IMG/VR virus record: IMGVR_UViG_3300027805_000007
Source: an uncultured virus (IMG/VR IMGVR_UViG_3300027805_000007)
Taxonomy: Duplodnaviria; Heunggongvirae; Uroviricota; Caudoviricetes
Length of the DNA stretch: 36,586 nt
Reading direction: 5' to 3' (one strand)
Shown: positions 2,290-28,001 of the stretch, in pieces
Numbering within the stretch: position 1 is the stretch's first letter
Layout: each line of letters starts with the position of its first letter
Notes under the pieces: generated by a model
Database searches by the model: none
What the model was told of the DNA's origin: nothing
The model's input: the letters and a program-made list of their open reading frames with translations, nothing else
Program-made: the position numbers and the translations under genes

Positions 2290-3048
2290 CTAGAAAGGTA
2301 GTTCTGGTTGTTCGCTACGTGCTTGTTTACTCTTTTTAGGCTGAGGGATACGTCTGGTGCTCGTCATCCACGATGGGACGTTGATTGCAGCGTTGGGCGG
2401 GAAATCCTTATTAGGATCATGGATCATGTATGCATTCTGAGCACGGGTTTCAGCGGCAAGGGCACGATGTGCCTCACGTGGCATAGTTGCCGCATGGCTC
2501 TCATAGGCGGCTTCTTCACCATGTCGGGAGAAGTCACGACCGATGGCAAGGTGTCCAAGAGCATCGTGTACAGCACGGAACCTATCGTTTTGTTCGTTTG
2601 TCCATAAACTATGCCCACCCGTTGATTCAGTGGACAAAACACGTAGTCTGCGGTTTTTAGCGATGTCTTCGTGCATTTCACGTGGATGGTTGTACGGGTT
2701 ATCGTGGGTTACTTCAACGGCAATACCTGCACCACCCTGCTCTTTAGGAGTTGTTATGTGGGCGTACTGTTCATCAACTGTTCTAGTTAGGGCATCATAA
2801 CTACGGCGCATTGCACGAGTCAAAGGTTTTGGATTTGCATATGCAGGACGTACAGCCAATGCCGCTGTGTAGTGTGATTCTCCTGCACGAATATTGGCAA
2901 ACTGGTCTGGGTTATGGGTGCGCCCCACACGTGAGGCAAAGTGGCTGGCAACATCAGACAGTTCAGAAACAGGTGCGCCATAGCGCAAAGTGTCCCCACC
3001 TGGACCAAACTCTAGTGGCAGTTGCTCTTGTTGGACGGGTTTCTTCAC
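2290..3048 (-). CDS. Hypothetical protein with an HDxxGH metal-binding/peptidase-like motif
   Basis: NDRFRAVHDALGH...GEEAAY motif; QLPLEF near the N-terminus and QPELPF at the C-terminus. Confidence 0.65.
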   Translation of the reverse strand: MKKPVQQEQLPLEFGPGGDTLRYGAPVSELSDVASHFASRVGRTHNPDQFANIRAGESHYTAALAVRPAYANPKPLTRAMRRSYDALTRTVDEQYAHITTPKEQGGAGIAVEVTHDNPYNHPREMHEDIAKNRRLRVLSTESTGGHSLWTNEQNDRFRAVHDALGHLAIGRDFSRHGEEAAYESHAATMPREAHRALAAETRAQNAYMIHDPNKDFPPNAAINVPSWMTSTRRIPQPKKSKQARSEQPELPF

Positions 3049-3067
3049 CCTCCAATTTTAGTACAAG

Positions 3068-3298
3068 TTATACCGCTGTGAGGTTAATGGGTGAGTTCAT
3101 GAAGGCAAAATGAAGCGTTGTAGCAATATCATCTGATGTGTACCCAAGTTTAACTAAAACACTAATAACGTCGTCAACCGAACCAACCAGGGCATTATTC
3201 CAGTTTTTAATAGAGTCCACCGCTTTTACAACATCCAAAGCGTCTGCATGGTTTGGGCTATAACTCAGTAGGTGGGTAATTTGGTATGGTGCGGTCAT
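3068..3298 (-). CDS. Hypothetical protein
   Basis: Tightly packed ORF colinear with neighbours. Confidence 0.6.
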   Translation of the reverse strand: MTAPYQITHLLSYSPNHADALDVVKAVDSIKNWNNALVGSVDDVISVLVKLGYTSDDIATTLHFAFMNSPINLTAV

Positions 3299-3299
3299 C

Positions 3300-3875
3300 T
3301 TATTCTCCTTGTACTGTTCTTGCCCTTAAAGGCTGACCTTTCAAAAGAGCCGCAGTTGCTCGGTGGTGACCAGCAAGAATGATTCCTTGACCAGTGTCCT
3401 TCTTAACGTACACAAAAGGTAGTTGGTTTCCAACATTTTCTTTATCTGCGTACAAAGATGGTTGATTGGTCATGTAGTGGCGAACTCCAGCAGAAAGGAT
3501 ATGTGGTTGATTTGCTGTTAACAACCTTGGATCAAACTCTTCTACGTTTTCATTCCTAGGACGATTAATCGTTCTGTCTACCAATTCTTTGTCGTACCCA
3601 GTACCTTCTTTGCTTTTAGCAAAACGATCCCAAGGAACAGTGGTTTTAGCGTGGGTTGCATATCTGTATGCTTCACGCTCTGGTGGTACAGATCCTGTTC
3701 TTTTTTTAATATGTTCGTTGATTGCATTAAATGTTGGGTCTTCTCCAAGATTGCCAAACAATGCGTGAATGTCATTAGAACCATGAAGACTATTTAATTT
3801 TTGATACGACTGAGAATGTAGGTCGTAAAAACCAGCGTCTTTAATAAACTGGGATAAGTGTTGATGAGCAGCCAT
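3300..3875 (-). CDS. ParB/Sulfiredoxin-like domain protein
   Basis: LTANQP...LPFVY...IILAGHHRATAALLKG motif; N-terminus MAAHQHLSQF. Confidence 0.7.
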   Translation of the reverse strand: MAAHQHLSQFIKDAGFYDLHSQSYQKLNSLHGSNDIHALFGNLGEDPTFNAINEHIKKRTGSVPPEREAYRYATHAKTTVPWDRFAKSKEGTGYDKELVDRTINRPRNENVEEFDPRLLTANQPHILSAGVRHYMTNQPSLYADKENVGNQLPFVYVKKDTGQGIILAGHHRATAALLKGQPLRARTVQGE

Positions 3876-3894
3876 TAGTTATGTCCTTAAAAAC

Positions 3895-4038
3895 TTAATA
3901 TACACCTTCACAGCAGGCATCCCTAGAACCACACTCAGGGCAACGATAGTGGGCATGTTCTGGGCGCATGCGGGCACCGCAATGAACACACTGCTCGCTA
4001 CAGTCGGCTACTTTAGGACTTGGAGTTTGACTTCCCAT
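3895..4038 (-). CDS. Small Cys-rich zinc-ribbon protein (47 aa)
   Basis: Manual translation ...CVHCGARMRPEHAHYRCPECGSRDACCEGVY. The start overlaps the upstream ORF and is uncertain. Confidence 0.6.
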   Translation of the reverse strand: MGSQTPSPKVADCSEQCVHCGARMRPEHAHYRCPECGSRDACCEGVY

Positions 4039-4166
4039 GCACCTGTACCAACGGACTTAATGTTCAATAAAACAGATGATTTATACCCATGGGCCTTAGC
4101 CATTCTCATGGCTTGGTCAATAGCGTCCTGCATGGCTGGGGTATGAATGGGGTAGGTAACGATCAC
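4008..4166 (-). CDS. Small hypothetical protein (52 aa), leaderless
   Basis: Manual translation MIVTYPIHTPAMQDAIDQAMRMAKAHGYKSSVLLNIKSVGTGAWEVKLQVLK; TAGACT lies 6 nt before the GTG. Confidence 0.55.
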   Translation of the reverse strand: MIVTYPIHTPAMQDAIDQAMRMAKAHGYKSSVLLNIKSVGTGAWEVKLQVLK

Positions 4167-4182
4167 ATGTATAGTCTACAGC

Positions 4183-4947
4183 ATGCTTTTAGAAAACCTT
4201 ACAATACCAGCACCAGCACCAGGACCAGCCGATTGGAATGATGACGGCTTTGTAATTAAAAAAGGGCTGTTGCCAGAAGACTTAATGCAACAATATGAAC
4301 AATGCTGGATTGAACACAACCCAGAGCGACCTGGTGGATGGCCTGATTGTACTCCGTACCGTCGTCACCCAGAAGTGCTGAATATCCTTACCTATCACGC
4401 AATTAATGACACGATGGAACAATTGATTGGCGAACCTGCCGCTGTTCACTTGAATCTTACTGGTTGGGTCACTACTCGCCGCAACTGGCATCAAGACACT
4501 TATTTGAATCCTGCACACGTCGGTGACTACTACGTAGCAATTTGGATTGCTCTTGAAACTATTCATCCAGATTCTGGACCATTTCAGTTTGTTCGTGGTT
4601 CACATCGTTGGCCTGTTGTTACACGAGAAAAGATCCTTGAAGCGTTAGAGCCAGAAGAACGTGATCATCGTTGGCCTAAGTACAGCGAGCGACTGCTCAC
4701 ACCATTGTTTGAAGCAGAGATTGAAAAGCGTAACGCTGAAGTAATTACTTACTTGCCAGAACGTGGTGACGTTTTGTTTTGGCATGGTCGTTTGCTACAC
4801 CGTGGTTCAGAACCTAATATTCCTGGTATGCCACGCAAATCATTGATTGCTCACTACTCAGGTATTAACCATCGCCAAGACATGCCAACAGCAGTACAAC
4901 ATGGTGCTGGTTGGTATTTCCCAATTGAGGGTGGGAATACAGAGTGA
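4183..4947 (+). CDS. PhyH-family 2-oxoglutarate/Fe(II) dioxygenase
   Basis: WHQD facial-triad motif, VAIWIALE...GPFQFVRGSHRW, GDVLFWHGRLLHRGSEP...R. Confidence 0.9.
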   Translation: MLLENLTIPAPAPGPADWNDDGFVIKKGLLPEDLMQQYEQCWIEHNPERPGGWPDCTPYRRHPEVLNILTYHAINDTMEQLIGEPAAVHLNLTGWVTTRRNWHQDTYLNPAHVGDYYVAIWIALETIHPDSGPFQFVRGSHRWPVVTREKILEALEPEERDHRWPKYSERLLTPLFEAEIEKRNAEVITYLPERGDVLFWHGRLLHRGSEPNIPGMPRKSLIAHYSGINHRQDMPTAVQHGAGWYFPIEGGNTE

Positions 4948-5525
4948 AACTACTTAACGCAGGTTGTGGAACACATTACGCACAAGGGTGGGTAAACGTT
5001 GATGTTTGGGAATCAGACACAACAAAACCAGATGTTGTTGTAAAACCAGGTGAACCATACCCATTTGATGACAACACATTTGATGCTGCCTACTTAGGAC
5101 ATGTTATTGAGCACATTCCTTGGAATGATGTGCCTAAGTTCCTTACAGATATTTCAAGAGTTGTAAAACCGAACGCACCAATACTTGTAGTCGGTCCAGA
5201 CGTTTATAAAACAATAAAGAGATGGAAAGACGGTCAGGAACCGTTTTGGATGATTGAGTCTGTTCTAGAACATATGGACATGAACTGGCAACCTGAGCGT
5301 ACTCATGAGTGGTGGGATGGTGCACATCATCATTGGAACTGCCATGAGCAACGTGTAGAGAAGTTGCTGGACAAATGTGGTTTCTTAGACATTCGCAATG
5401 TTTATGAGGATATTCCGAATGATCCCAACGGTTTGTCATGGTTTGATAGTACAACAAACATCACATGGCCTGTGGTTGGTAAATACTTCTGGCAACTAGC
5501 GTTTAGTTGTAAGAACCCTATTTAA
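4944..5525 (+). CDS. Class I SAM-dependent methyltransferase (Methyltransf_11-like)
   Basis: LLNAGCG..., PFDDNTFDAAYLGHVIEHI...RVVKP; GTGA overlap with the dioxygenase gene. Confidence 0.85.
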   Translation: MKLLNAGCGTHYAQGWVNVDVWESDTTKPDVVVKPGEPYPFDDNTFDAAYLGHVIEHIPWNDVPKFLTDISRVVKPNAPILVVGPDVYKTIKRWKDGQEPFWMIESVLEHMDMNWQPERTHEWWDGAHHHWNCHEQRVEKLLDKCGFLDIRNVYEDIPNDPNGLSWFDSTTNITWPVVGKYFWQLAFSCKNPI

Positions 5526-6126
5526 TCCAAATACCCACACGCTCTGCTTCTGCACCGTCATCACTGACAAAGGTGTAGCCATCTGGCATCGGATCTGGTT
5601 CGTCAAACCATACTGGAACCATGCAAGTGTTACCGTACACAAAGTCAGGATTGCCTCTTAAATGTACCTCTATGAGGTTGCCGTCAATAAACTCACAGTT
5701 TATGGTTTTGTATCTAGTGACTAAGTGTTTCAAGAAACTAGGTAGCGGGTAAGTCTTAGCAACCTTCTCCCAGTAAACAAACCTGCTGTATGGGCGTTCT
5801 GCATGCTTAATGCCAACAACAGACAACACTGGTTCGCCTAATTCGTAATCAATGCTTAGATGCTCACCTGTAAACACCTCACACCAGAACTCACCTGGAT
5901 GTAGATGGTTTGTGTTGTGGGTAAGATGCTCAACACGTGCTTTAGTTCCCATGCCATTGATATTCATGACTGGTTTAACGAAATAGTCGTTAGGGGTTGG
6001 GACTGTCACGCCCGTGGGACCACAAAGGTGTCCAGCACGTCTTGCAACAATTAATTTATCAAAGACCCATAAGTCTTCGTCAGATACATTCCCAACCCAC
6101 GCAATAGCGTCTGGGGGTGGGCGCAT
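5518..6126 (-). CDS. ATP-grasp-like phage protein
   Basis: FDKL...YFVKPVMNINGMG...FWCEVFTGEHLSIDY...INCEFIDGNLIEVHLRGNPDF. The start is probably ATG 6126, just after the upstream stop. Confidence 0.6.
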   Translation of the reverse strand: MRPPPDAIAWVGNVSDEDLWVFDKLIVARRAGHLCGPTGVTVPTPNDYFVKPVMNINGMGTKARVEHLTHNTNHLHPGEFWCEVFTGEHLSIDYELGEPVLSVVGIKHAERPYSRFVYWEKVAKTYPLPSFLKHLVTRYKTINCEFIDGNLIEVHLRGNPDFVYGNTCMVPVWFDEPDPMPDGYTFVSDDGAEAERVGIWIK

Positions 6127-6127
6127 A

Positions 6128-6364
6128 CTATTCTTCTTTACTAATGACTCCAAAAGCAGAATCAATGTCTTCAGCGCTTAGATCACCGTCAGCAAGATAC
6201 AACCGAGCCAATCGCTCTACAACTGTGGCAACTCCACCAATACCAGCCATCATTATGGCTTTCCAGAGTTCAACTCCTGCAATGGTACCAGCACCGACAA
6301 CACCTAGTCCAGTGGCGGCAAATGCCGCAAGGATACGTAGAAATACATGTTTTAGTTTCTTCAT
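6128..6364 (-). CDS. Small membrane protein (holin-like)
   Basis: Two hydrophobic Gly/Ala-rich helices and an acidic tail; TATAAT 6 nt upstream. Confidence 0.65.
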   Translation of the reverse strand: MKKLKHVFLRILAAFAATGLGVVGAGTIAGVELWKAIMMAGIGGVATVVERLARLYLADGDLSAEDIDSAFGVISKEE

Positions 6365-6381
6365 CTACCGATTATAGATGA

Positions 6382-6585
6382 TTAGACCTTGGAGCGCCTT
6401 TTGAAGTCTTGGTGCATGAGGTGACCACGGTGGTCACGGCGGTAATCTTCACGGATTGGGGCAATATGACCATGTTCGTCTACAGCACGCATCAAATTGC
6501 GGTGAAAAGCACGGATAACAAGAAGGACGGCGGTGGCGATGATAAAGGTAGACATAAGACGTTTAAGTATAACCGATTTAGTCAT
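6382..6585 (-). CDS. Small single-TM protein
   Basis: Hydrophobic N-terminal helix; GGAGG SD. Confidence 0.6.
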   Translation of the reverse strand: MTKSVILKRLMSTFIIATAVLLVIRAFHRNLMRAVDEHGHIAPIREDYRRDHRGHLMHQDFKRRSKV

Positions 6586-6588
6586 AAA

Positions 6589-6762
6589 TTACCCTCCGTT
6601 TGAATAGAAGCCACGACCAACCAGATTGACCGCTGGAGAGAAGTAGACAGGGCGTAACTGCTCACCGCAGTCTGGACAGTTGATTACTTGCTGTTCGTCA
6701 TAGATACTGCGGGTTTCTTCATGACGGTGGTCATTTCCGCACTTGTAAGCATATGTTGGCAT
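6589..6762 (-). CDS. FmdB-family zinc-ribbon protein
   Basis: MPTYAYKCGNDH...CPDCG...LVGRGFYSN. Start reassigned to ATG 6762. Confidence 0.8.
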   Translation of the reverse strand: MPTYAYKCGNDHRHEETRSIYDEQQVINCPDCGEQLRPVYFSPAVNLVGRGFYSNGG

Positions 6763-6772
6763 GTCAAAAAGT

Positions 6773-7141
6773 CTAGTCGTATTGGACAGGGATTTCTGCG
6801 TTGGGGTTAATATCGTTGGCAACTGCAATGCGGTGGTGCCCATCTTCAATAACAGGTCCTTTATAGTCAGCCCCAGGAAAGTAGTCGTACGTACGACCAC
6901 GAACACTAAATGGGTGTTGACCTATCGTAATAGGATCTTGTACGCCCTCATTTTTAATTTCATTGTATAAACCTTCAGTTTTTGCTTCTTGTACTTTACG
7001 AGAAGTTACTTGAGGAAGATCTCTATATCTCTGAGGTTTGTCAGTTTCTGGCTGATCTAATGGAATCATGTCCATCAACTTATGTGCAGGAATAAACATA
7101 GCCAGTTGGGCTTCGTTAAGAACATGCTTCTTTTTACCCAT
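6773..7141 (-). CDS. ParB/Srx-like single-domain protein
   Basis: LYNEIKNEGVQDPITI...IEDGHHRIAVANDINP. Confidence 0.75.
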   Translation of the reverse strand: MGKKKHVLNEAQLAMFIPAHKLMDMIPLDQPETDKPQRYRDLPQVTSRKVQEAKTEGLYNEIKNEGVQDPITIGQHPFSVRGRTYDYFPGADYKGPVIEDGHHRIAVANDINPNAEIPVQYD

Positions 7142-7545
7142 TAGTCACGCTCTTCAGGTGTACTTACGTTACGTTCTGATTGCCTAGAATGAAATGTTGC
7201 CCTACCTGTGGCTACAAAGCCAGTTTTTGATGCGTATTCCTTACCATAGACTGTTTCTACAGCAGAATGGACATCTTCTGGCATTCTACGTTTAACTTGT
7301 TCAGAAACACTGGCTATGTCCTGTGGGGTTTCTACTTCGTTAATCCACGCACCTTTACCTTCTCCACGTGTAATTGCATACTCTTTGGCTTTTTCAAGGT
7401 CATTAGTAGCAAAAGCATATGGAGTTGTATCGCCTCCATAGTTTGTCATAGAACCCGTTTTTATAGGTTTTACTAATTCACCTTTTTTAAATAGATGTGC
7501 TGAAGAATGGAACAACTTAGGATTGAGGTGCTCTTGTGCTGACAT
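7141..7545 (-). CDS. ADP-ribosyltransferase-like protein (Arr/PARP-like fold)
   Basis: LFHSS..FKKGELVKP...YAFATNDLEKAKEYA...WINEVE. Confidence 0.55.
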   Translation of the reverse strand: MSAQEHLNPKLFHSSAHLFKKGELVKPIKTGSMTNYGGDTTPYAFATNDLEKAKEYAITRGEGKGAWINEVETPQDIASVSEQVKRRMPEDVHSAVETVYGKEYASKTGFVATGRATFHSRQSERNVSTPEERD

Positions 7546-8165
7546 TACTTCTTAGGCCATTCAGTTGGGACAGACGTAGGGTCAACTAACCATTCTGCTT
7601 CTGGGCGACGCTTATCACCAACAGTTCTGCGAACTCCACCTATTTCAGACAAAGGCACACCACGAACTAAGCCAGGGGCGGCTTTAAAGATAGAACCACG
7701 AGATCTACCACGAGGTGCGGCAAAAGAACGAGCAACATTTAAGTCAGGAGTAAATGACAACGCTGTATCCCTAGACTCACCAACATCTAGTGAAGGTAAG
7801 CGACGTGCGCCACGATATAAGGTGACATCGTTTTCACGACTGTTGCCACGTACTGCGTCGGTGAGATCACGTAAACTAGCGGCAACACGGTGAGGGTTAC
7901 CAATTAAGTGTTCACCACGTTCCATTTGAAACTGAGCAACGGTGTGGCTGACATCAGTTGGCTTAATTAAATCGGCATGGCTTTCAGCAAACGGACGCAT
8001 ACCTGCTCCGATACGAGTACCTTTCCATGCATCGTCATATTCTTCTGCTGACATCAAGGTGTCATTGATTTTGGCTACTTTGCCAGACAAAGCGTCTTCA
8101 ATGCTCATTCCATGAATTCTTTTAAAGTGCTCGCCAAATAGATAATTATTAAGTGGCGCACTCAT
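7545..8165 (-). CDS. ADP-ribosyltransferase-like protein (R-S-E type)
   Basis: TLYRG...LSFTPDLNVARSFA...EAEWLV. Confidence 0.65.
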   Translation of the reverse strand: MSAPLNNYLFGEHFKRIHGMSIEDALSGKVAKINDTLMSAEEYDDAWKGTRIGAGMRPFAESHADLIKPTDVSHTVAQFQMERGEHLIGNPHRVAASLRDLTDAVRGNSRENDVTLYRGARRLPSLDVGESRDTALSFTPDLNVARSFAAPRGRSRGSIFKAAPGLVRGVPLSEIGGVRRTVGDKRRPEAEWLVDPTSVPTEWPKK

Positions 8166-8180
8166 AAGTGACTAGTTACT

Positions 8181-8405
8181 TTAGTATTCTTGTCCTGGGT
8201 TGTCCAACATGTCGGCAGTGTCACGCAGTCCACAGCAGCGTTCACATGGGCAATCTTGCGCAACAGCCTTAAAGAAGGTGGAAATGTGGTTCAAACGACT
8301 TGGTGGAAAATCCTGCCCTTGGTTAGAAAGATAACCACGCTTGGCTACAGTCTCTTGTGGATTGATTGAGCGAGGATGGGCTGGTTCTTTTTTAGGTACA
8401 AGCAT
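8181..8405 (-). CDS. Hypothetical protein with CPCERCC motif
   Basis: ORF with TACAAT 6 nt upstream. Confidence 0.6.
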   Translation of the reverse strand: MLVPKKEPAHPRSINPQETVAKRGYLSNQGQDFPPSRLNHISTFFKAVAQDCPCERCCGLRDTADMLDNPGQEY

Positions 8406-8538
8406 TTATGTATTGTACAGCATGCTCTCACAACCATAATAGGCATATGAGTACCTCACCTGTCAAGGGTTTTTTAAAGAAAAATTAGGTAGTACTACTT
8501 CGTACACACTATTCAAATGGCGTCTCTAGGCAGTTAAA

Positions 8539-8880
8539 CTAAGTTTCTGTTGGTGGTTGGTGTTCTTTAACAACACGCCAACCATGACGAGATGCATAGT
8601 TTCGTCCAATCTCGTGGACGCTACCAGATGTTGGACCGTATAGGTCCTGACCACCTCGCATAGGTTTGACTTCCCATACCCTTACAGGGTTGTCTAAATG
8701 ACTATTCTTACTGTTTCTTAATGCTTCGGCACGTGCCGCATCAGGATGGTCAGTTGCCCATGTTTCATGTATCTGCCCGCCTGATGGGGGTGGGGGTACA
8801 ATAAACGAACCAACTGCCATATCTGGGGCTTTTGAACCATGGTAAAAGGTTGATGGAAATTGGTCTGGGCTAAGTGTCAT
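8539..8880 (-). CDS. ADP-ribosyltransferase-like protein (Arr-like)
   Basis: FYHGS...VGSFIVP...WATDHPDAA...RVWEVKP; N-terminus MTLSPDQF. Confidence 0.55.
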   Translation of the reverse strand: MTLSPDQFPSTFYHGSKAPDMAVGSFIVPPPPSGGQIHETWATDHPDAARAEALRNSKNSHLDNPVRVWEVKPMRGGQDLYGPTSGSVHEIGRNYASRHGWRVVKEHQPPTET

Positions 8881-9533
8881 TCCATACCTGGTAGCCGTGG
8901 CTGATCAAACTTTGGTGCAGGTGCGTCTTGAGGTGTGCGACCACGACCAAGAACTTGTCGTAAAAACTGTTTACCACGCATAACATCACTTTTAGGGATA
9001 AGAGTCTCGCCTGGATAAGGGTCACGTCCCATTTTATACATGTCAGGGTCAGTTGAATATAAAGCATGAGTGTCTGTTGTTGATGCGTCTACGTTAGATG
9101 GGTGAGGTTGTACTAGTCCTTTAGCAATACCATGTTTGGCTAATTTAGAAGAATCTTGTGTTAAAGCATGATCTGATACAAAGTCAGTATCTGGGTGATC
9201 TTGTTTAGCAATTGCTAATAATGTTGGAATATGTTGACGCATTGTTGGGTTTGCGTAAGCGCCAGAGATTCTGGCACGTGCTCTAGTGCTTTTAAACAAT
9301 TCTGTTGCAGGTTCTGGGGTATCTGCGCTGAAGTCGTTAGGCGTATGTGACTCATCATTAACATGCGATATCTCTACTTGAGCATAAGGGTACCCACCAG
9401 ACCACATGCGTGCAATACCTTTATCAGGTGAGTAGTTGTCACTTACGGCTCTGTATGTCTTCCATGTAGGGTGATGACCGTATTCATCCGTTACATATTG
9501 CAACTTGTCGTTTGTGCGGTAATACTGAGCCAT
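8877..9533 (-). CDS. Hypothetical protein, possible degenerate GNAT fold; C-terminus DQPRLPGME
   Basis: RISGAYANPTMR..IPTLL...SDHALTQDSSKL pattern is only weakly GNAT-like. Confidence 0.6.
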   Translation of the reverse strand: MAQYYRTNDKLQYVTDEYGHHPTWKTYRAVSDNYSPDKGIARMWSGGYPYAQVEISHVNDESHTPNDFSADTPEPATELFKSTRARARISGAYANPTMRQHIPTLLAIAKQDHPDTDFVSDHALTQDSSKLAKHGIAKGLVQPHPSNVDASTTDTHALYSTDPDMYKMGRDPYPGETLIPKSDVMRGKQFLRQVLGRGRTPQDAPAPKFDQPRLPGME

Positions 9534-9787
9534 TATTTCATACTCCTACGGATTTGACCCATTTTATAGTCTGCAATCCCTGACTGGATGGTGTTCCAGT
9601 TCTTTTTAGCAAACTCAACGTGTTCTGGAGAAGCATCAGGCCATTCATGCCACGAGTCACCGTTCTCTGGAGTCACGATAGACCATGCATCATCTCCAGG
9701 ACCCCACACAGCCTCACGTGGGGCTTTAGCAATACGGAATGCTTTACCGTAGTGCTGGTCCCAGTTAATGGCTTCGTGTGCCCCCAT
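9533..9787 (-). CDS. Hypothetical protein
   Basis: TAATG-coupled; N-terminus MGAHEAINWDQH. Confidence 0.7.
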   Translation of the reverse strand: MGAHEAINWDQHYGKAFRIAKAPREAVWGPGDDAWSIVTPENGDSWHEWPDASPEHVEFAKKNWNTIQSGIADYKMGQIRRSMK

Positions 9788-10296
9788 TACTTCTTTTCCT
9801 TGCCTACTTCACCTACGTATGTCACACGACCTGCGGTGATTGCAGACTTAGGGATCATGAAAGAAACACTTCCTGCATCTTCTACTTTATTTCTGTACGG
9901 CTGTACACGACCATGCTTTAGAGTTTCTTCTCCTGTGCTTGGAACGGATTCCCACAGGCTTTGTTGTACTCCTGACATACTTCTTTGAAATACGTTAGTT
10001 TCCCCCATGCCAGGTGCATCATCATAAGTGACTGGCGACATCTCACGTGTGTCAACGTCATAGGCATGTATGTAAGGACGGATACCGCCACCAAGTTCAC
10101 TTGCGGCTTTATGGGTGCCAGCATGGATGATGTCTGGGTGGGTGTTGGTGTACGCAGCACCTTGTTCGTACTCCATCTCTCTTTGCCCTCTTAATATAAA
10201 ACCATGAGGTAGTTCTACTTCATGTGGTGGCTCAGCATCACGAGATGCATGGTAAACACGCATAATGTGTTCACCGACATGGTCTGACGCCGCCAT
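9787..10296 (-). CDS. ADP-ribosyltransferase-like protein
   Basis: RVYHAS...IIHAGTHKAA...YIHAYDV...YRNKVEDAGSVSFMI. Confidence 0.5.
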   Translation of the reverse strand: MAASDHVGEHIMRVYHASRDAEPPHEVELPHGFILRGQREMEYEQGAAYTNTHPDIIHAGTHKAASELGGGIRPYIHAYDVDTREMSPVTYDDAPGMGETNVFQRSMSGVQQSLWESVPSTGEETLKHGRVQPYRNKVEDAGSVSFMIPKSAITAGRVTYVGEVGKEKK

Positions 10297-10614
10297 CTAT
10301 TGACCCATCTTCTTTTTCCAGTTCGCACCAGCGTCAGATGAAGTTGGTCCAATGTCAATTGGTCCGTAGTGTTCTTCGGCGGTATTGAACATTGCGGTGG
10401 CAATGCCTCGCTTTTCATAGCGTTTGTTTGTGGCAATACCAAACACCATGTGTGGACGCTCACCACCTTCTTGGAAGTTGAGCATGACTCCTAGTCTGCC
10501 TGTAACGGTTTTACCACTGCGTGCTTCCACATCGCCAAACGGGTTTGCACGGATCGTGTGCTCTTTGCCACGGCTGTCTACAAACTGCTTACTGAGGCTC
10601 TCGTATGCTGACAT
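10297..10614 (-). CDS. GNAT-family acetyltransferase-like protein
   Basis: VFGIATNKRYEKRGIATAMF (acetyl-CoA-binding motif A)...SSDAGANW. Confidence 0.7.
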   Translation of the reverse strand: MSAYESLSKQFVDSRGKEHTIRANPFGDVEARSGKTVTGRLGVMLNFQEGGERPHMVFGIATNKRYEKRGIATAMFNTAEEHYGPIDIGPTSSDAGANWKKKMGQ

Positions 10615-10617
10615 TTA

Positions 10618-10977
10618 CTAAGCGTACCTTACTGGTACTTCCATATCTGGGTTGATGTCATTAGCCGTTACGACTCGGTGATGTCCGTCGCTGATTTGTA
10701 CGCCATTTTTACGGACACGTAGCGATATAGGGCTTTTAACACCCTCTTTTTTAATACTGTCATACAAACTTTCTTGTCCTGTTTTTTTAGGAAGATGTGC
10801 ACCAGCAGCAGCACCTGACTTAGATTCTTGCAACTTTTCTTTTATAAGTCCAGGAGACTCAGACAAAAATAAGTATTTGTCGCCATATCCTTCGGTATGT
10901 CCTGCGGTGTAGCCCATTAGTTCCCGTGCAGGGACAAACATAGATAACTGACCACTGAGATGTTCTTGCGCCGCCAT
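10618..10977 (-). CDS. ParB/Srx-like single-domain protein
   Basis: LYDSIKKEGVKSPISL...ISDGHHRVVTANDINP; N-terminus MAAQEHLSGQLSMF. Confidence 0.75.
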   Translation of the reverse strand: MAAQEHLSGQLSMFVPARELMGYTAGHTEGYGDKYLFLSESPGLIKEKLQESKSGAAAGAHLPKKTGQESLYDSIKKEGVKSPISLRVRKNGVQISDGHHRVVTANDINPDMEVPVRYA

Positions 10978-11135
10978 TACTTCTTCTTTCGTTCTTGCTT
11001 GGCTTTATTCTTCTCTAGCAGGTATTCAGGGTCACGCTTGGTAAAGCCTGCGGCTTGGTGGATCTCGGAGCGGGGCACAGGCTCACCATCTACCCACACA
11101 TAGTCATTGAACTGATTACCGTCTAGGCGTGGCAT
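10977..11135 (-). CDS. Small basic protein (52 aa)
   Basis: Manual translation MPRLDGNQFNDYVWVDGEPVPRSEIHQAAGFTKRDPEYLLEKNKAKQERKKK; TAATG overlaps at both ends. Confidence 0.75.
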   Translation of the reverse strand: MPRLDGNQFNDYVWVDGEPVPRSEIHQAAGFTKRDPEYLLEKNKAKQERKKK

Positions 11136-11638
11136 TATTCTTCTTTCCCGCCTCTGAACCTGATAGGTCCGTAACCATCGCTATCCCTACCAAAGTCACG
11201 ATGACCATGTATTTGGATGTTTGGGTGCCGTTCTGAGGCGCTACGCATGACATCCACCACTCTTGGGGTCATAATCTTGCCAAAATTGATACTAGAAGGC
11301 TTATGGGCCTCTACTAGGGCATCCATGGCTCGTCTAGGGATACCTTCACCCTGTACACCAGACCTCATATAACGGATATAGATACCGTCCCCACCGTCTT
11401 GTGTCTCATAATCAATCATTCCAGCGGCATTAGGGCCAGCACCAGGTGTTTTTACCTTCTTTGGCTTCTGCCCACGTCGCATTTCTGTGTTTACCGTGTC
11501 TGCCAGCGTGTATCCAGTAGATGTTACGTCAGGATGCCGAACTACAACTCGTCTAATTTGTGCAAAACCAGGGTATGAACTCTCAAGAGGGGAATGCTCT
11601 TGGTGTTCAATGCGAAATTGATCAGGATTAAGTGGCAT
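11135..11638 (-). CDS. GNAT-like protein (divergent)
   Basis: AGMIDYE...IYIRYMRSGVQGEGIPRRAMDAL; N-terminus MPLNPDQF. Confidence 0.55.
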   Translation of the reverse strand: MPLNPDQFRIEHQEHSPLESSYPGFAQIRRVVVRHPDVTSTGYTLADTVNTEMRRGQKPKKVKTPGAGPNAAGMIDYETQDGGDGIYIRYMRSGVQGEGIPRRAMDALVEAHKPSSINFGKIMTPRVVDVMRSASERHPNIQIHGHRDFGRDSDGYGPIRFRGGKEE

Positions 11639-12597
11639 TATTCCATCCCTGGCAAGCGTGGCTGATCGTACTTTGGTTCTTTTTTGCCTACAGGTGCCTT
11701 CTCTGGGTATATATCTTCACCACGGGCTACACGAAATGCTTTAATACGGTTGCTTTTGAAGGTTTCACGAGCAGGAACTCGGTTATCTGAGTACTTTGAG
11801 TCAGTGATGTGCTCTGGTTGGTAACCTTGAAAAGACGGGTCTGATGCTCGTAAAGCCCTTGATTGCCTTCTCGTTGTGCGAAATTTTGCTAATTGGTACC
11901 CCATAGCACGACCTTCTGCGGCTGGAAGGAACTGATTTTGACCTCGGTACAGTGCGTTTTCACTACGATTACGATCAAAGTCGTGTGGATCGTTTGCTTC
12001 GTCTAGAGCATGCCCAATTTCGTGAATAAGTGTCTTACCTGTGAGCGCTCCATGGTATGTATCAAAGTTTTGCTTTGGATTTTTCATAAGAATGGCGCCA
12101 GCATCCTCGTCTTCGGAGACTGGTGACTCCCCACCTGGGTAATATTCACCAGCAATGCCTTTAGGAAGGCTCACACCAGTGTGTATCTCCATGTTGTTGT
12201 AGTCAGTCAACGCACGTATCTCATCTGTATCCATTGTGGAGCGAGCAATAGTGTCGTAGACAAAAGCCCTTTCTCGTTGTGGGCTTTGCGGACCCCAAAC
12301 TGGGTCGTTTCCTGATTCCTCAGTATGGGAATGAATGTATGGCATTGCTTCACCAACTTCAGCCCTACGCTGAGGTGTAAAGCCTTTAGGCCACACATGC
12401 TCATGAAACAGTTTTCCTTGCCCGTGCTTGCCTACAGGATGCTGTTGACCTGGCTTCACGTCGGAAAATTTAGGAACACGTGCCTTAATTGTTCCCGAAA
12501 ACTCAGGGTCACCCGTCTCAAAGGCATTCTTTTGCTCTTGAAACTTCTCCCAGTCAATCTGTTTGGGAGTTCTATAGTTGTCAGTCCAGAATGCCAT
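11638..12597 (-). CDS. Zincin-type metallopeptidase-like protein
   Basis: AGEY...ILM...TLIHEIGHALD (HExxH)...AEGRA; C-terminus DQPRLPGME. Confidence 0.7.
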   Translation of the reverse strand: MAFWTDNYRTPKQIDWEKFQEQKNAFETGDPEFSGTIKARVPKFSDVKPGQQHPVGKHGQGKLFHEHVWPKGFTPQRRAEVGEAMPYIHSHTEESGNDPVWGPQSPQRERAFVYDTIARSTMDTDEIRALTDYNNMEIHTGVSLPKGIAGEYYPGGESPVSEDEDAGAILMKNPKQNFDTYHGALTGKTLIHEIGHALDEANDPHDFDRNRSENALYRGQNQFLPAAEGRAMGYQLAKFRTTRRQSRALRASDPSFQGYQPEHITDSKYSDNRVPARETFKSNRIKAFRVARGEDIYPEKAPVGKKEPKYDQPRLPGME

Positions 12598-12614
12598 TTA
12601 CATAGTATAGATGG

Positions 12615-13001
12615 TTACTCTACTTCAAGTACATTCTCTGGAGGGATGTGACCCCAGTGCATTGCTGAACCTGTTTGCCGAAGGCTATTCTTCCAGTCAC
12701 TAGAATCGTCAGTACGTAGTTTAGATTCATCAAAATTTCTATTTACACTTGTGTGTACAGGATCCTCAAAGGAGTTCCAGTCTACTTGAAGGTTTCTTGG
12801 GTTCACACGAACTTTTACGATTGCTGGGTCTTTGTGCATGCTGGCGTAGTGTTCAGCCAATTCACGATCAGGTGTTACATAAACATTGGGCTTACCGAGT
12901 CCTGTACGTGCCCCTAGACCATCTGCTTTGATATTTGTGGCATTTTCTTTTGAAGTCCCATGGTACATATGCATGTGGAATTGATCGGGACTGAGAGCCA
13001 T
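12615..13001 (-). CDS. ADP-ribosyltransferase / Tpt1-like fold protein
   Basis: MYHGTSKENATNIKADGL...VYVTPDRELAEHYA...AIVKV...GHIPPENV; N-terminus MALSPDQF. Confidence 0.7.
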   Translation of the reverse strand: MALSPDQFHMHMYHGTSKENATNIKADGLGARTGLGKPNVYVTPDRELAEHYASMHKDPAIVKVRVNPRNLQVDWNSFEDPVHTSVNRNFDESKLRTDDSSDWKNSLRQTGSAMHWGHIPPENVLEVE

Positions 13002-13018
13002 AAATCAAGTATAGATGG

Positions 13019-13420
13019 TTACTGTTTAGACTGTTCGTTTTCTCGGTGTGTATGAGCAGGGAGACGCTCTGATTGAGCCTCTTTGGGTGTTCCATAGGTA
13101 ATTGGAACAAACATGGTCGGGTCAATGTCATGTGCGGCTGCAACACGGTGATAACCGTTGCGGATCCCTAATTCACGTCCCTCTACCCCGACACGGACAG
13201 GATTGACGATTCCTTCACGTTGCACGCTCTTATAGATGCCTGAGTCGTAGGCTTCGTCGCTTTTACGGTTCCAGAACGATTCATCTTCAGAAACTTGACG
13301 ACCTGCACGGGTTTGTGTAGGAGCATCTGCTGTAGTCATCTCACGAGGGTGGATTGGCATGTCACGGAGCATTTTTACAGGCATGAACAACTGACCGTTG
13401 AGGTGGTGCCATGATGCCAT
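13019..13420 (-). CDS. ParB/Srx-like single-domain protein
   Basis: IYKSVQREGIVNPVRV...IRNGYHRVAAAHDIDP; N-terminus MASWHHLNGQLF. Confidence 0.75.
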   Translation of the reverse strand: MASWHHLNGQLFMPVKMLRDMPIHPREMTTADAPTQTRAGRQVSEDESFWNRKSDEAYDSGIYKSVQREGIVNPVRVGVEGRELGIRNGYHRVAAAHDIDPTMFVPITYGTPKEAQSERLPAHTHRENEQSKQ

Positions 13421-13437
13421 ATTTCAAGTATAGAGGG

Positions 13438-13695
13438 TTACTTGTGACGCAAAGCGGCTTTAATGACTCCCGCTTTTTTATCCGCAATACCCTCGGGACC
13501 AGCATCACGCTCTGAACGGTAGCGGTTGACATTATTTTGCATACTTTGCGCTAGTTCTTCCCGTGGAATGGAGTGATGCGTGGAGGTTTTGGGGTCACGT
13601 ATAGACAATTCGTAGTCAACAATCTTGTTAACAAGACGTGGCGTGGGGCGATAAATAATAGCCCTGAACTGGTCAATGTTTACCTTGTCTTGCAT
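13438..13695 (-). CDS. Hypothetical protein
   Basis: First gene of the leftward arm; N-terminus MQDKVNIDQF; TATACT 6 nt upstream. Confidence 0.65.
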   Translation of the reverse strand: MQDKVNIDQFRAIIYRPTPRLVNKIVDYELSIRDPKTSTHHSIPREELAQSMQNNVNRYRSERDAGPEGIADKKAGVIKAALRHK

Positions 13696-13797
13696 AAAAC
13701 AAGTATAGGGCTATTTGGGCGAGGTGGGTGGTCGGTCGGATTTTTGAATGGGGCTATCTGGTAGTGGAGCGTTGGGTGGGGCCTCTCTCCTACCCCC

Positions 13798-13811
13798 CGA
13801 ACACCCGTTCG
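13798..13811. promoter_or_regulatory. LexA SOS box (Gram-positive/actinobacterial type)
   Basis: CGAAC-ACCC-GTTCG, a perfect match to CGAAC-N4-GTTCG. Confidence 0.65.
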
Positions 13812-13834
13812 CCCCCGCTTAACCATGGGGGTAC

Positions 13835-13931
13835 TTATCCACAGGGTACTCCATACCCCATAAGGGTTTGCTGGGTTATCCACAGCCCCCCCTGTGGATA
13901 TCCTGTGGATACTGTGGAACATTGTGGAACA
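13835..13931. promoter_or_regulatory. Cluster of six DnaA-box-like 9-mers
   Basis: TTATCCACA at 13835 and 13876 (perfect). Reverse copies: TGTGGATAT 13893, TGTGGATAC 13904, TGTGGAACA 13913 and 13923. Confidence 0.75.
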
Positions 13932-13970
13932 TTGGGTTAGGGGCGCCTAACACCCGTAAGGCTCACCTAA
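13932..13970. promoter_or_regulatory. Two tandem IdeR/DtxR-like boxes
   Basis: TTGGGTTAGGGGCGCCTAA and ACCCGTAAGGCTCACCTAA, each 14/19 to TWAGGTWAGSCTWACCTWA, 20 bp apart. Confidence 0.5.
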
Positions 13971-13972
13971 CA

Positions 13973-14020
13973 TGTGACGATCGTCACACTCATTGTTACA
14001 ATGTCGTGACATTCGTCACA
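13973..14020. promoter_or_regulatory. Two CRP/GlxR-type boxes
   Basis: TGTGA-CGATCG-TCACA (13973-13988, perfect) and CGTGA-CATTCG-TCACA (14005-14020). Confidence 0.7.
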
Positions 14021-14421
14021 AAGCCTTGACAAGCCCCCACCTCATATGCCCTCGCTTCAGGATGCGTTCTAAGAGGAGCAGGGGCGTTTTCAAGTAAATA
14101 TGCATTTTCAGGAATTAAACGCTTCCTGAGGCTTCTGATCAACCTAGAAATGGGGCTATGAGCCTTACTGGGTAAGGGTTTGCGGGGTATCGGTAGGTAT
14201 ATAAGACCCTCCACAATCGCCCCAGTTGCTATCAACCTCCTCCCGTCTCAAAATCGCCCTACGCCTCTCAGAACGGCTCCTAATGCGTCTCAGGGCATTT
14301 CCCAGTATTCATTGGAAACCTGCATTTCCTCCCTCTCTACTCCCTCCATCCGATGGATGGCTGTCGCTTTGGGCGCCCTTTTCCAGCCCTCTGACCGCCG
14401 ATCCCCCGCTGGAGGAGGCTC

Positions 14422-14483
14422 AAAAGAATTTAAAGAAATTGTTCAGAAACTATTGACAGATGTACACCCCATGTGCCTATGCT
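14422..14483 (+). promoter_or_regulatory. Candidate early promoter (A-rich UP tract, TTGACA, TATGCT)
   Basis: TTGACA at 14453-14458 and TATGCT at 14478-14483; the 19-nt spacer is atypical. Confidence 0.4.
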
Positions 14484-14539
14484 GGGGGTGGAGGCGCTAG
14501 TCCCCTCCGCAGGTTCCTTGACAAGTGGCAGGTACGGCA

Positions 14540-14563
14540 CGCAGGCTTCGCCCTGCGCTTTTT
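14540..14563 (+). terminator. Hairpin plus U-tract (possible attenuator/terminator in the early leader)
   Basis: CGCAGG-CTTCGC-CCTGCG-CTTTTT. Confidence 0.45.
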
Positions 14564-14604
14564 GCGTTCCTGCCCTCAGAATCAAACATGGTTCAAAATT
14601 CCTC

Positions 14605-14738
14605 AGCGTCACGGGCGGGCTTCGGCTTGCTCGTGGCGCTCAATGAGCGCTGGGGACACTCCCCCTGCTCCAGCGCTGATTGAGCGTCACACACGCTCCG
14701 ATGGCACACAGCCTTCGCAGTCCTGAGGAGGACACACC
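14605..14738 (+). repeat. Structured intergenic element type B (tandem long hairpins plus SD hairpin)
   Basis: AGCGTCACGGGCGGGC-TTCG-GCTTGCTCGTGGCGCT; second stem at 14637-14686; GTCC-TGAGGA-GGAC. Confidence 0.7.
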
Positions 14739-15164
14739 ATGAACATCAAAGATGAGCAATTCAGCAACTTGATCAAGTACAACGATCACGGTCAGGCTCA
14801 ATACAGCCCTGAGGCTGTAGCACTTCGCTTCGCTGGAATCTTGGCTGACATCACCAAGCGCAAGGCTTCATCGGCAGACCGAGCACTATGGGCTTCAGTC
14901 CCTCAGATCGGCGCCGATGCCAAGCGCTTGGACATCGTCAAGGACTTCAGCATTCGCTGTGCCGAAAAGGGATACATCAGTGACCTACTCGGTTACGGGG
15001 ATCTTGGCGGGCAGGTCGGCGTTGTCACGGAAGTGCGGGAGATCCGCAAGCGTGACGGTCGTACGGCGGTGGATGTTGAGATCGTTTTCTTCAACCACAC
15101 GACTATTGGCAAGTACCGCAGTGACTCAGCCAAACGGCGCAAGTTGCAATTCATCAAGGGCTGA
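14739..15164 (+). CDS. Hypothetical protein
   Basis: GAGGAGG SD, ATG start. Confidence 0.85.
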   Translation: MNIKDEQFSNLIKYNDHGQAQYSPEAVALRFAGILADITKRKASSADRALWASVPQIGADAKRLDIVKDFSIRCAEKGYISDLLGYGDLGGQVGVVTEVREIRKRDGRTAVDVEIVFFNHTTIGKYRSDSAKRRKLQFIKG

Positions 15165-15788: not shown

Positions 15789-15798
15789 TTGAGTTCTT

Positions 15799-22007: not shown

Positions 22008-22247
22008 ATGAAAGTAAGTCACGCAATTAAATTATTGAGTGAGATCAATCCTGACGAAGAGATCGCTATCTCTTGGTGGGAAGCAAACCTGTTCACCATT
22101 GGTGACAATGATGAAACATTGTCGGCAGATTCAGAAGAATGGCTCAGGGCTGTTGAAGTGTTTGACGCCAACGGTGGTTACGACAGCGTCAACCAAGATG
22201 TGTGGACATACCTCAATTACGACATCACAGAACAAGGAGAGTTCTAA
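22008..22247 (+). CDS. Small acidic hypothetical protein
   Basis: SD and ATG start. Confidence 0.8.
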   Translation: MKVSHAIKLLSEINPDEEIAISWWEANLFTIGDNDETLSADSEEWLRAVEVFDANGGYDSVNQDVWTYLNYDITEQGEF

Positions 22248-26616: not shown

Positions 26617-27639
26617 ATGTCAAGAGAAACCAGCCAGTGGCTCAACCAAAATGTATTGGTGGGCTTTACATCCAAGCGTGGGAACGCATGGCACTACAAG
26701 GCAACCGATCAGGGAACTGAGCCAAACCATTACGAGCAGGCAATCCCTGTTGAAGATGTCAAGCGTCGTCTGTTCCACTGGAAGGCAATTGAAGCACCAG
26801 TGTTCGTGCAAGTGCCTAACAATGGCACCTTCAAGTACATCCCACAGGATGACCGCAAGGCAATCGTTCGTGACGACAACTACGAGACGCTTGGTCTCTT
26901 CAAGGATTCGTATCAGATCCACCAGTACGAGGAGTGGTTGCTCGGCACCGTGGCAAACGTGATTGATGACAGCAACTTGCAGATCGGTTCTGCGGGCTTG
27001 CTTCGCAGTGGCGGTGTCGCATGGGTCAGCATTGAGATGCCTGAGACAATCAGCACCAAGGCGGGCTTTGAGTTCCGTCCACACTTGCTCGCAACTACGA
27101 GCCACAACGGCACGCTTGCCACAACATTCAAGCGAGTCGTCACCGCCGTGGTCTGCGACAACACGCTCGCTGGAGCGCTCGGTGAGCAGGGATCAGAGTT
27201 CAAGACTCGTCACAGCAAGTACAGCAACGGACGCATTCAAGACATCCGTGACGCTCTCGGAATCATTCACAGCATGGCTGATGAGGTGTCGCTTGAGATT
27301 GAGCGCCTCTCGTCAATCACTGTGACCCAGTCCGAGTGGGACGCCATCGTGGATCGTCTCGTGCCTGTTGGTACCGAAGGTGAGGCTCGCCCACAAGCGA
27401 TCAGTCGCTCACAGAACAAGCAGGAAGCGATCCGTCACCTCTACAAGAACGACCCACGAGTCGCTCCATGGATGGGAACTGGTCTCGGAGTGTTGCAAGC
27501 ATTCAACACCTACCAACACCACATGAGTGGCAAGGACGACAGCCGTGTTGAGCGCAACGCAATGAATGCACTCAACGGCAAGACCGATGAGTTTGACCGT
27601 CAGGTCATTCGGATCTTGGAGGATGTAGTCCTCGTATGA
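26617..27639 (+). CDS. DUF932-family phage/plasmid protein
   Basis: SAGLLRSGGVAWV, LLATTSHNGTLAT, VVCDNTL, RHSKYS, GTGLGVLQAFNTY. Confidence 0.85.
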   Translation: MSRETSQWLNQNVLVGFTSKRGNAWHYKATDQGTEPNHYEQAIPVEDVKRRLFHWKAIEAPVFVQVPNNGTFKYIPQDDRKAIVRDDNYETLGLFKDSYQIHQYEEWLLGTVANVIDDSNLQIGSAGLLRSGGVAWVSIEMPETISTKAGFEFRPHLLATTSHNGTLATTFKRVVTAVVCDNTLAGALGEQGSEFKTRHSKYSNGRIQDIRDALGIIHSMADEVSLEIERLSSITVTQSEWDAIVDRLVPVGTEGEARPQAISRSQNKQEAIRHLYKNDPRVAPWMGTGLGVLQAFNTYQHHMSGKDDSRVERNAMNALNGKTDEFDRQVIRILEDVVLV

Positions 27640-28001
27640 ACCGCTGGGATTACTACAACGATGCGGGGGAGTCAAATCCCCCGCTTCATGTACCTACAAT
27701 CATTAACAAAGAGATCATGGATCCTTTACCGTTCCCCGAAGTAGGTACATGGCGCAAATATGCGTCATGCCGACATGAAGACACAACTACTTTCTTTGCT
27801 ACTGGATTAGTAGGGCATAACAAAGAAATACGATTAAAAAGAAAGCAAGCCATTGAGATATGCCAAGGCTGTCCTGTTTCATTCCAATGCCTACGCTATG
27901 CCGTCAAGAACGACATCCGCTGGGGCGTATGGGGTGGCAGAGATATGCAGTCTCTTGAAAAGGTTGATCGCCTGAATCTAGGAAAGATCTTCAATAAGTA
28001 A
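27636..28001 (+). CDS. whiB: WhiB-family transcription regulator
   Basis: W...ASC...FF...AIEICQGCPVSFQCL...WGVWGG. Confidence 0.9.
   Translation: MNRWDYYNDAGESNPPLHVPTIINKEIMDPLPFPEVGTWRKYASCRHEDTTTFFATGLVGHNKEIRLKRKQAIEICQGCPVSFQCLRYAVKNDIRWGVWGGRDMQSLEKVDRLNLGKIFNK

Follow-up and report, generated by a model that had tools for sequence, protein, structure and literature searches.

A short N-terminal header shared by many small proteins in a gene array of an uncultured actinobacterial phage

The subject of this work is a 36,586-nt stretch of DNA from the uncultured virus IMGVR_UViG_3300027805_000007 (Caudoviricetes), below called the window, and in it an array of small minus-strand genes (positions 3300–13695), many of whose protein products open with variants of one short peptide. 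We observed that this N-terminal header, or tag, is shared by many unrelated protein bodies across a wide clade of actinophages. The header is probably a short docking peptide read by one common partner. As to the partner, the analysis leads us to favour, tentatively, a component of head assembly, in which case the tagged enzymes would be loaded into the virion and injected.

The window is part of an actinobacterial phage of ∼95 kb. Record G001 belongs to the same phage (99.98% identity across window positions 15790–36586) and carries its structural genes. A complete relative, G003 (98,060 bp with terminal repeats), is a myovirus with genes for capsid, putative scaffold, portal, HslV-like peptidase, large terminase and tail sheath. 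By capsid protein (58% identity) the cultured relatives are the Streptomyces phage BRock group. We found no cultured phage with the tag, the BRock group being free of it in the 50 kb examined; searches of phage records by megablast with window positions 3000–14000 and by tblastn with the ParB-like tagged protein gave no match.

Occurrence and conservation of the header

The 14 N-termini listed in the original prediction all occur, at the positions given there, as starts of minus-strand open reading frames (ORFs) of the array. With the tag written as [LIV][SND].{0,2}Q[FL] inside the first 14 amino acids, we observed it in 10 of the 19 minus-strand array ORFs versus 1 of the 59 other ORFs of the window (ORF 8181–8405, judged spurious, is counted among the 59); the lone outside match, a GTG-start ORF at 22202, looks like chance. 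A stricter form, with [LI][SN] at the first two positions, was present in 8 of 19 array ORFs and in none of the 59 others. The pattern matched none of 675 non-overlapping internal 14-mers and none of 75 ORFs in the remainder of the same phage (G001 positions 1–54224). Two other phages also lacked it in their first 50 kb, namely Streptomyces phage BRock (0 of 100 ORFs) and Actinomycetia phage DSL-LC01 (0 of 96). The expectation that the motif is enriched over other genes was thus borne out. Four of the listed N-termini (7545, 8165, 9787 and 10296) are missed by the pattern, all of them still variants of the tag; homologues of the 7545–8165 protein open with MAAHEHLNNYLF (L061, L072), so that the weaker N-termini are eroded copies.

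Pattern scans of IMG/VR and related loci gave a long form of the header, M-A-A-H-E-H-L-N-x-x-Q-[LF], or in looser writing M-[AS]-A-[HSQ]-[DE]-H-[LI]-[NSH]-x-x-Q-[LF]. Its latter part alone makes up the short form, M-x-L-[NS]-P-D-Q-F (compare MAAHEHLNPDQL in L041), and members of families 0, 14 and 19 bear either of them; judged by these sequences the two variants are one tag in two lengths. The strict tag was present on 16 of 49 BLAST-distinct families (99 array ORFs from six genomes), and on about 24 of the 49 if evident variants are counted by eye. For the tagged ParB/Srx-like family a profile search retrieved 2,313 metagenomic clusters (50% identity) at E ≤ 1e-3 and 877 at E ≤ 1e-10; among the best 150 of the ParB-like clusters 91 open with the long form and 130 with the looser one.

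The diversity of the bodies was put too strongly in the original prediction, according to which they have nothing else in common. By BLAST of the bodies at E ≤ 1e-4 the 14 listed proteins make 12 groups; the genes at 6773–7141, 10618–10977 and 13019–13420, and weakly 3300–3875, are ParB/Srx paralogues, while weak BLAST links join 12615–13001, 8539–8880 and 7141–7545. With four ParB/Srx paralogues and four proteins that look like ADP-ribosyltransferases (ARTs) the claim was overstated for the window; that the tag sits on many distinct proteins stood, given the 16 tagged families in the six genomes.

Conservation of the header is seen at the level of the peptide. The DNA encoding the fixed-spacing core was compared in 20 different versions, in which the first and second codon positions are fixed and the third nearly free: information at third positions of Leu, Pro and Phe codons is 0.22–0.54 bits versus 1.3–2.0 bits at constrained first and second positions. 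Leucine in the core is encoded by CTT, CTC, CTA, CTG and TTA, and serine by AGC and AGT, with TCC in the short-spacing tag of 3300–3875. Since the amino acids are kept while third positions vary, it is the peptide that is under selection, rather than the DNA or RNA. Between genomes, 102 pairs of carriers were compared, 90 of them ParB-like and not independent; the mean identity was 0.50 for the tag versus 0.40 for the body, and the tag was the better conserved part in 75 of the 102 pairs, including 10 of the 12 non-ParB ones.

One usable structural model is available, for the tagged protein of 10618–10977. The AlphaFold2 (AF2) model has a mean predicted local distance difference test score (pLDDT) of 77.5; residues 1–10 have pLDDT <50 and are unstructured, and the first strand covers residues 13–16, so that the header is predicted to be a free, flexible N-terminal overhang ahead of a ParB/Srx fold. 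Since the header is short, disordered and conserved as a peptide, while the bodies behind it are many and unrelated, the best explanation is that it docks with a single partner common to its carriers. The earlier idea of a modular, portable address peptide has thus received good support from the number of families, the selection at the protein level and the disordered overhang.

The boundaries between array genes bear on whether a partner is needed at all. The array is tightly packed, and at nearly every boundary we see either TAATG or ATGA overlaps or the junction TAA-CC(A/C)TCTATACT-N6-ATG. The sequence CTATACT has four minus-strand sites in the window, all at the starts of the first four array genes: 12604..12610 (six bases before the ATG of 11638–12597), 13008..13014 (before the ATG of 12615–13001), 13427..13433 (before that of 13019–13420) and 13702..13708 (before that of 13438–13695). 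Similar boxes precede array genes of relatives and a few other genes. Leaderless transcripts are a habit of Actinobacteria, and the boxes are possibly −10 elements of such transcripts, or else they may mark a cassette boundary. A scan with the sigma-70 consensus did not call them (10 sites versus a mean of 20.2 in shuffles).

It is conceivable that the header has no partner and is a passenger of cassette recombination, which would take place in the first codons of a resident gene and capture its promoter box and start; in a variant of this explanation, leaderless or re-initiated translation would have shaped the first codons. The recurrent junctions would fit, as would the gene content, shuffled among relatives and different even between close ones, and the inversion of the array in G003 (73799–76883), where it is convergent with the replication genes, being divergent from them in the window (6773–13695) and in L003. 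The core L-[SN]-P-D-Q-F presumably also fits a generic helix N-cap pattern. Neither variant, however, would be expected to keep amino acids while leaving third codon positions free, or to make the tag more conserved than the bodies; moreover, the tag is kept at GC contents anywhere between 0.39 and 0.66 and on genes with an ordinary upstream context inside head modules. We consider both variants, taken together, improbable.

Carriers of the header

Read on the minus strand, the array begins with a tagged gene of 85 aa (13438–13695; MQDKVNIDQF...). The ParB/Srx-like gene 13019–13420 (133 aa; MASWHHLNGQLFMPV...) is a paralogue of 10618–10977 (E 4e-12); its orthologues in L036 and L037 keep 10 and 9 of 11 tag residues at body identities of 52% and 56%, respectively. 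The following tagged gene, 12615–13001 (128 aa; MALSPDQFHMHMYHGT...), is ART-like, with a match to Pfam ART-PolyVal at E 0.0078 (17.4 bits versus a cut-off of 31.2); its AF2 model from an 8-row alignment had a mean pLDDT of 36.5 and was not used. Then comes an untagged member of the array, 11638–12597 (319 aa), with a zincin-like HEIGH motif and the ending ...DQPRLPGME. It has weak Pfam matches to Peptidase_M91 (E 0.023), M13 (E 0.045) and M85 (E 0.11), and a search of PDB sequences returned nothing meaningful.

The tagged gene 11135–11638 (167 aa; MPLNPDQF...) has a GNAT-like Q-x-x-G-x-G motif by eye, its fold not being recognised. Eight of its nine close homologues, those reaching the N-terminus, keep M-x-L-N-P-[DE]-Q-F, and the ninth starts later; the L003 member of the family starts with MAARDHIGDQF instead. 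The smallest carrier, 10977–11135 (52 aa; MPRLDGNQF...), has a relative in L001 that begins MDPRHESPQF. The 119-aa product of 10618–10977 (MAAQEHLSGQLSMF...) is, according to its model, a ParB/Srx-type domain: the top Foldseek matches were KorB, ParB, Noc and sulfiredoxin (E 5e-4 to 3e-2), in weak agreement with a profile search of PDB sequences (ParB, E 0.047). The product of 10297–10614 (105 aa; MSAYESLSKQF...) matched Pfam Acetyltransf_1 (GNAT) at E 0.0031, below cut-off.

Further along, 9787–10296 (169 aa; MAASDHVGEHIMRVYHAS...) is ART-like by eye. The gene 9533–9787 (84 aa; MGAHEAINWDQH...) has an orthologue in L003 that begins MAAHEAINWDQH and a relative in L061 that begins MAAHEHINWEQH. 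A second untagged member, 8877–9533 (218 aa), also ends ...DQPRLPGME and is similar in its C-terminal half to 11638–12597 (E 3e-5); its stop overlaps (ATGA) the start of the ART-like tagged gene 8539–8880 (113 aa; MTLSPDQFPSTFYHGS...), which BLAST relates to 12615–13001 at E 3e-4. For 7545–8165 (206 aa; MSAPLNNYLF..., a shortened long-form tag) the motifs LYRG, SFT and EAEW, found by eye, suggest a candidate ADP-ribosyltransferase of the R-S-E type; neither Pfam nor PDB sequences gave a match. The tagged gene 7141–7545 (134 aa; MSAQEHLNPKLFHSS...) is ART-like by weak similarity only (BLAST to 12615–13001, E 0.019), and its homologues begin MSAQEHLSPKLFHGS and MAAHEHLSPKLFHGS.

The ParB/Srx-like gene 6773–7141 (122 aa; MGKKKHVLNEAQLAMF...), a paralogue of 10618–10977 at E 5e-18, was included in the ParB-like alignments A2 and A4. 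The last tagged gene, 3300–3875 (191 aa; MAAHQHLSQF...), has no Pfam or PHROG match; its C-terminal ...GHHRATAALLKG resembles the ParB/Srx motif, and a weak BLAST link (E 0.049) leads to 10618–10977. Associated with the array on the same strand is 2290–3048 (252 aa, phrog_3170), with ...QEQLPLEF at the N-terminus, HNPDQF inside and ...SEQPELPF at the C-terminus.

The ART-like, GNAT-like and zincin-like assignments are weak. Further hints are, for ART, an Arr-ms match at E 0.0052 (L001:7560–7925) and a [YF]HG[ST] motif directly after the tag and, for GNAT, a match at E 2.6e-5 in a relative; zincin-like HExxH proteins are frequent in the arrays. Taken at face value, the repertoire (ParB/Srx-, ART-, GNAT- and zincin-like) would match solo copies of the modules of polyvalent proteins, though the window genes are separate ORFs of 52–319 aa and not polypeptides of 2–15 domains. 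The fused form was seen only in a distant relative, P0072, a 1,662-aa protein from an Actinomycetia metagenome-assembled genome, named as a hydrolase, with three ParB-like stretches, NUDIX and 2H domains, a match to ParB_N at E 1e-8 and, by eye, ART-like and HExxH segments. By its domains P0072 is a polyvalent protein in the sense of PMC5512222, with the same vocabulary as the array. By eye, its internal ...AASDHLVLYHGA... compares with 9787–10296; longer fused homologues of the latter numbered zero among 507 candidates, which is weak evidence.

Large tagged proteins also exist. Pairs of 467–583 aa (MPLGKQFDNTYY...) in L001/G003 (70538–73588) and L036 (2794–6269) have HExxH and mostly a C-terminal LPG tail, and look like small multi-module relatives of the solo genes; an ESM Atlas search with the 583-aa protein gave a best score of 0.84, a lead only, with an LPD23 cluster at rank 14. 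The LPG tail, Q-x(1-3)-L-P-G-[ML]-E, ends 13 of the 99 array proteins, mostly zincin-like ones or ones of ∼275 aa. Examples of such tails are ..DQPRLPGME, ..QFLPGMEGFV, ..QLPGLENY and ..SEQPELPF (8877–9533, 11638–12597 and 2290–3048 in the window; L001, L003, L005, L036 and L037). One relative has the variant ..KKPEQLNLFD, and the 252-aa family starts with ..QEQLPLEF. We take these tails and QEQLPLEF to resemble bacterial sliding-clamp-binding motifs. The same likeness, assumed by us for QLx[ML]F of the ParB-like proteins, was rejected: in the first strand of the fold this F is invariant, and Q-L shifts relative to F in the 13019–13420 subfamily.

Several other features of the window lie outside the array. 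Between the array and the divergent replication-side genes ∼1 kb (13700–14739) has no convincing ORF; its GC content of 0.54 is above that of the array, and ARAGORN found no tRNA in it. The minus-strand gene 674–2233 encodes 519 aa with a hydrophobic N-terminus and a long low-complexity middle rich in Thr, Ser, Glu and Pro, possibly a surface or fibre protein, with homologues in G003 and L005. Two ORFs are WhiB-like by eye, 27636–28001 (plus strand) and 30011–30427 (minus strand). The minus-strand gene 31823–33259 is a homologue of DpdA-like tRNA-guanine transglycosylases with 27–29% identity to the Streptomyces phage BRock group, in some records of which the matches are annotated as queuine tRNA-ribosyltransferase or dpdA-like transglycosylase; this similarity suggests 7-deazaguanine DNA modification in the phage.

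Possible partners of the header

The original prediction had the capsid as the address. In the form that we favour, the array would encode stand-alone copies of enzyme modules that other phages fuse into polyvalent proteins, most of them headed by one portable peptide of ∼10 residues; the header would bind one component of head assembly, and in this way the enzymes would enter the procapsid and be injected along with the DNA, like the proteins that bear the capsid targeting sequence of T4 or the signal of P1 DarB. With the polyvalent-type repertoire, the copies coupled to portal genes and the examples of T4 and P1 taken together, head loading is more likely than any other single address, though we put its probability short of even. 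The evidence for the capsid is circumstantial, its positive part being the type of carriers and the adjacency to portal or capsid genes in some high-GC relatives.

This adjacency was observed as follows. Three high-GC relatives, L075, L160 and L162, have a tagged ParB-like gene that overlaps the start of the portal gene. L076 has a tagged gene overlapping the stop of the portal gene and a second one after the capsid gene; L078, with a portal 82% identical to that of L076, has no such insertions. In L138 a tagged gene of 176 aa is just upstream of the portal gene, and the same complete genome (G013) has an array elsewhere. A locus search with the single protein L076:5019–5357 returned its own contig only.

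A number of observations weigh on the other side. The array in the window's clade adjoins tail-fibre-like genes and the replication module; in G003 it is ∼30 kb away from the portal and capsid genes. The head module of the window's own phage has no tagged gene, and no structural protein bears the tag. Among 19 tagged ParB-like loci a portal, capsid or terminase gene was within ∼6 kb flanks in six, where some loci are near-duplicates and a rough estimate of the chance expectation is about a fifth. A tagged ORF stood beside the portal gene in just 1 of the 80 best portal-relative loci. In these unselected counts the association with head genes is modest. In five phage records we found neither MuF nor, with a control that worked, the HK97-type prohead protease (Peptidase_S78); the T4-type Peptidase_S77 was likewise found in none of the five, a result that is uninformative as the control had no match either. 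Furthermore, the gap between terminase and portal may be a mere insertion hot spot, since untagged genes for a metallophosphoesterase (phrog_20266, E 4e-82) and an HslV-family peptidase (phrog_1040) occupy it in L032 of G001 (11331–13144). Finally, conserved −10-like boxes precede the first array genes, always equally far from the ATG, as would fit host-takeover genes that are expressed independently.

Two further analyses left the balance where it was. A regular-expression scan of the 80 portal loci gave 51 candidates (versus 20 on reversed sequence), of which 49 share one peptide and were discarded, this peptide being an internal Met of the capsid gene as checked in L083. A prediction of the complex of portal, putative scaffold and tagged ParB-like protein had a score of 0.00, which speaks neither for nor against binding.

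The separate, self-promoted array and the lack of MuF or a recognisable prohead protease make a hub outside the capsid almost as likely as head loading, although in itself we regard it as doubtful. According to this explanation the header docks early host-takeover enzymes on one hub, such as host RNA polymerase, the replisome, the nucleoid, the ribosome or a phage regulator or chaperone, and thus concentrates modifiers right after infection. The border with the replication module, far from head genes, agrees with it, as do the conserved boxes, which precede the ATG of the first genes by six bases. Disordered N-terminal peptides are typical of linear docking motifs, and the second short motif of the same arrays, the C-terminal Q-x-x-LPG[ML]E (one variant EQLNLFD), suggests a peptide docking theme. 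In T4, ModA and ModB are early ARTs that are not packaged (PMC5512222). On the other hand, tagged genes in some relatives are in translational coupling with the portal gene or stand behind the capsid gene, and no candidate hub was identified. The boxes, in which the sigma-70 scan called no promoter, are no proof of early timing, since the same kind of box precedes the gene heading the packaging region in G003.

The HslV-like peptidase gene beside the portal is kept in G001–G004, and together with the frequent zincin-like proteins of the arrays it offers possible readers for a header of another kind, a processing or turnover signal. Such a header would be a leader clipped by a protease, as with Prp, or a degron timing the destruction of potentially toxic enzymes. 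Its core L-[NS]-x-x-Q-[FL] is similar to the site cut by Prp, (D/N)LQ(F/L)F'A (PMC9405229), and the P0072 module most like the L076 tagged protein lacks, by eye, the HLGPQ core. However, residues after Q-[FL] show no conservation, so no cleavage site is evident. Prp as the processor was rejected: no Prp homologue (Peptidase C108, PF04327) was found in the five phage records at E ≤ 1, with a control that matched 6 genomes, and Actinobacteria are not among the Prp-bearing phyla as far as these are named in the review PMC9405229. The HslV-like peptidase, too, lost weight as the reader of the tag, its gene being present also in DSL-LC01, tagless in the 50 kb examined. A signal for clipping or degradation has, in our estimate, a small probability; both it and a purely expression-linked origin are less likely than head loading or a hub.

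Returning to head loading, one can speculate that throughout a very large clade of actinobacterial myoviruses the header serves as a universal address for cargo, so that any bearer is loaded and injected, with the ParB/Srx-like family as the ancestral carrier; we consider this broader statement rather unlikely. If true, it would explain a freely shuffled array of solo anti-host enzymes in place of one giant polyvalent protein, other cassettes having borrowed the address from the abundant ParB/Srx-like family. An address label of this kind would be a second natural plug-and-play tag for a changing anti-host arsenal, after the T-even internal proteins, much more widespread than the T-even case and easily recognised by sequence. 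It would give a simple rule by which thousands of genomes from uncultured actinophages could be searched for candidates of delivered effectors, and possibly a handle for loading proteins into phage particles. Even with a partner outside the capsid, the header defines a large unannotated family and links solo genes to polyvalent proteins.

Comparison with known systems

Literature searches on polyvalent proteins, Prp/L27, the capsid targeting sequence and freshwater actinophages gave no description of the header, which is weak evidence that it is unpublished. The Prp leader, with the motif M-L-x-x-(D/N)-L-Q-(F/L)-F'A-(S/H)-K-K in L27 and phage 80-alpha (PMC9405229), is similar in being a short N-terminal leader, with a (D/N)-L-Q-(F/L)-F core, on unrelated proteins that include phage head proteins (PMC9405229, PMC5744158). 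It differs in belonging to Firmicutes and a few other phyla and in the F-F'A site, absent from the header, with only (D/N)..Q-(F/L) in common; its carriers are capsid or scaffold proteins whereas ours are enzymes, in phages of which five records contain no Prp.

Polyvalent proteins (Iyer, Burroughs, Anand, de Souza and Aravind 2017, PMC5512222) use the same vocabulary of ParB, ART, zincin peptidase, 2H and other domains, and solo versions of their domains exist in phages (PMC5512222). The genes of the window differ in being separate small ORFs and not one polypeptide; the passages of that paper on solo modules mention no shared N-terminal header (PMC5512222).

The Dar proteins of phage P1 are anti-restriction enzymes that enter the head by an N-terminal signal of <30 residues; for the packaging of DarB its first 30 residues are enough, and the darB gene is a neighbour of the portal gene (PMC9024508). 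P1 DdrB has, moreover, a ParB-like domain (PMC5512222). As described in the relevant passages of PMC9024508, Dar proteins have no common N-terminal consensus, whereas here a consensus is the striking feature; the P1 carriers are large multidomain proteins and ours are solo modules of 52–206 aa.

The capsid targeting sequence of T4 (IPI–III and Alt) is comparable in its arrangement. This T4 peptide takes its bearers to the scaffolding core and is itself cleaved by the prohead protease, whereas here no HK97-type protease was found in five phage records; most carriers in the array are recognisable enzyme modules, and the array is away from the head genes. In T-even phages the internal proteins share only this sequence, a short N-terminal peptide that is the sole common part of a diverse, fast-changing anti-host set encoded together (PMC3012670). 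The array shows the same arrangement, a short N-terminal peptide common to dissimilar proteins of a variable locus, with the tag on 10 of the 19 array ORFs of the window and on 16 of 49 families.

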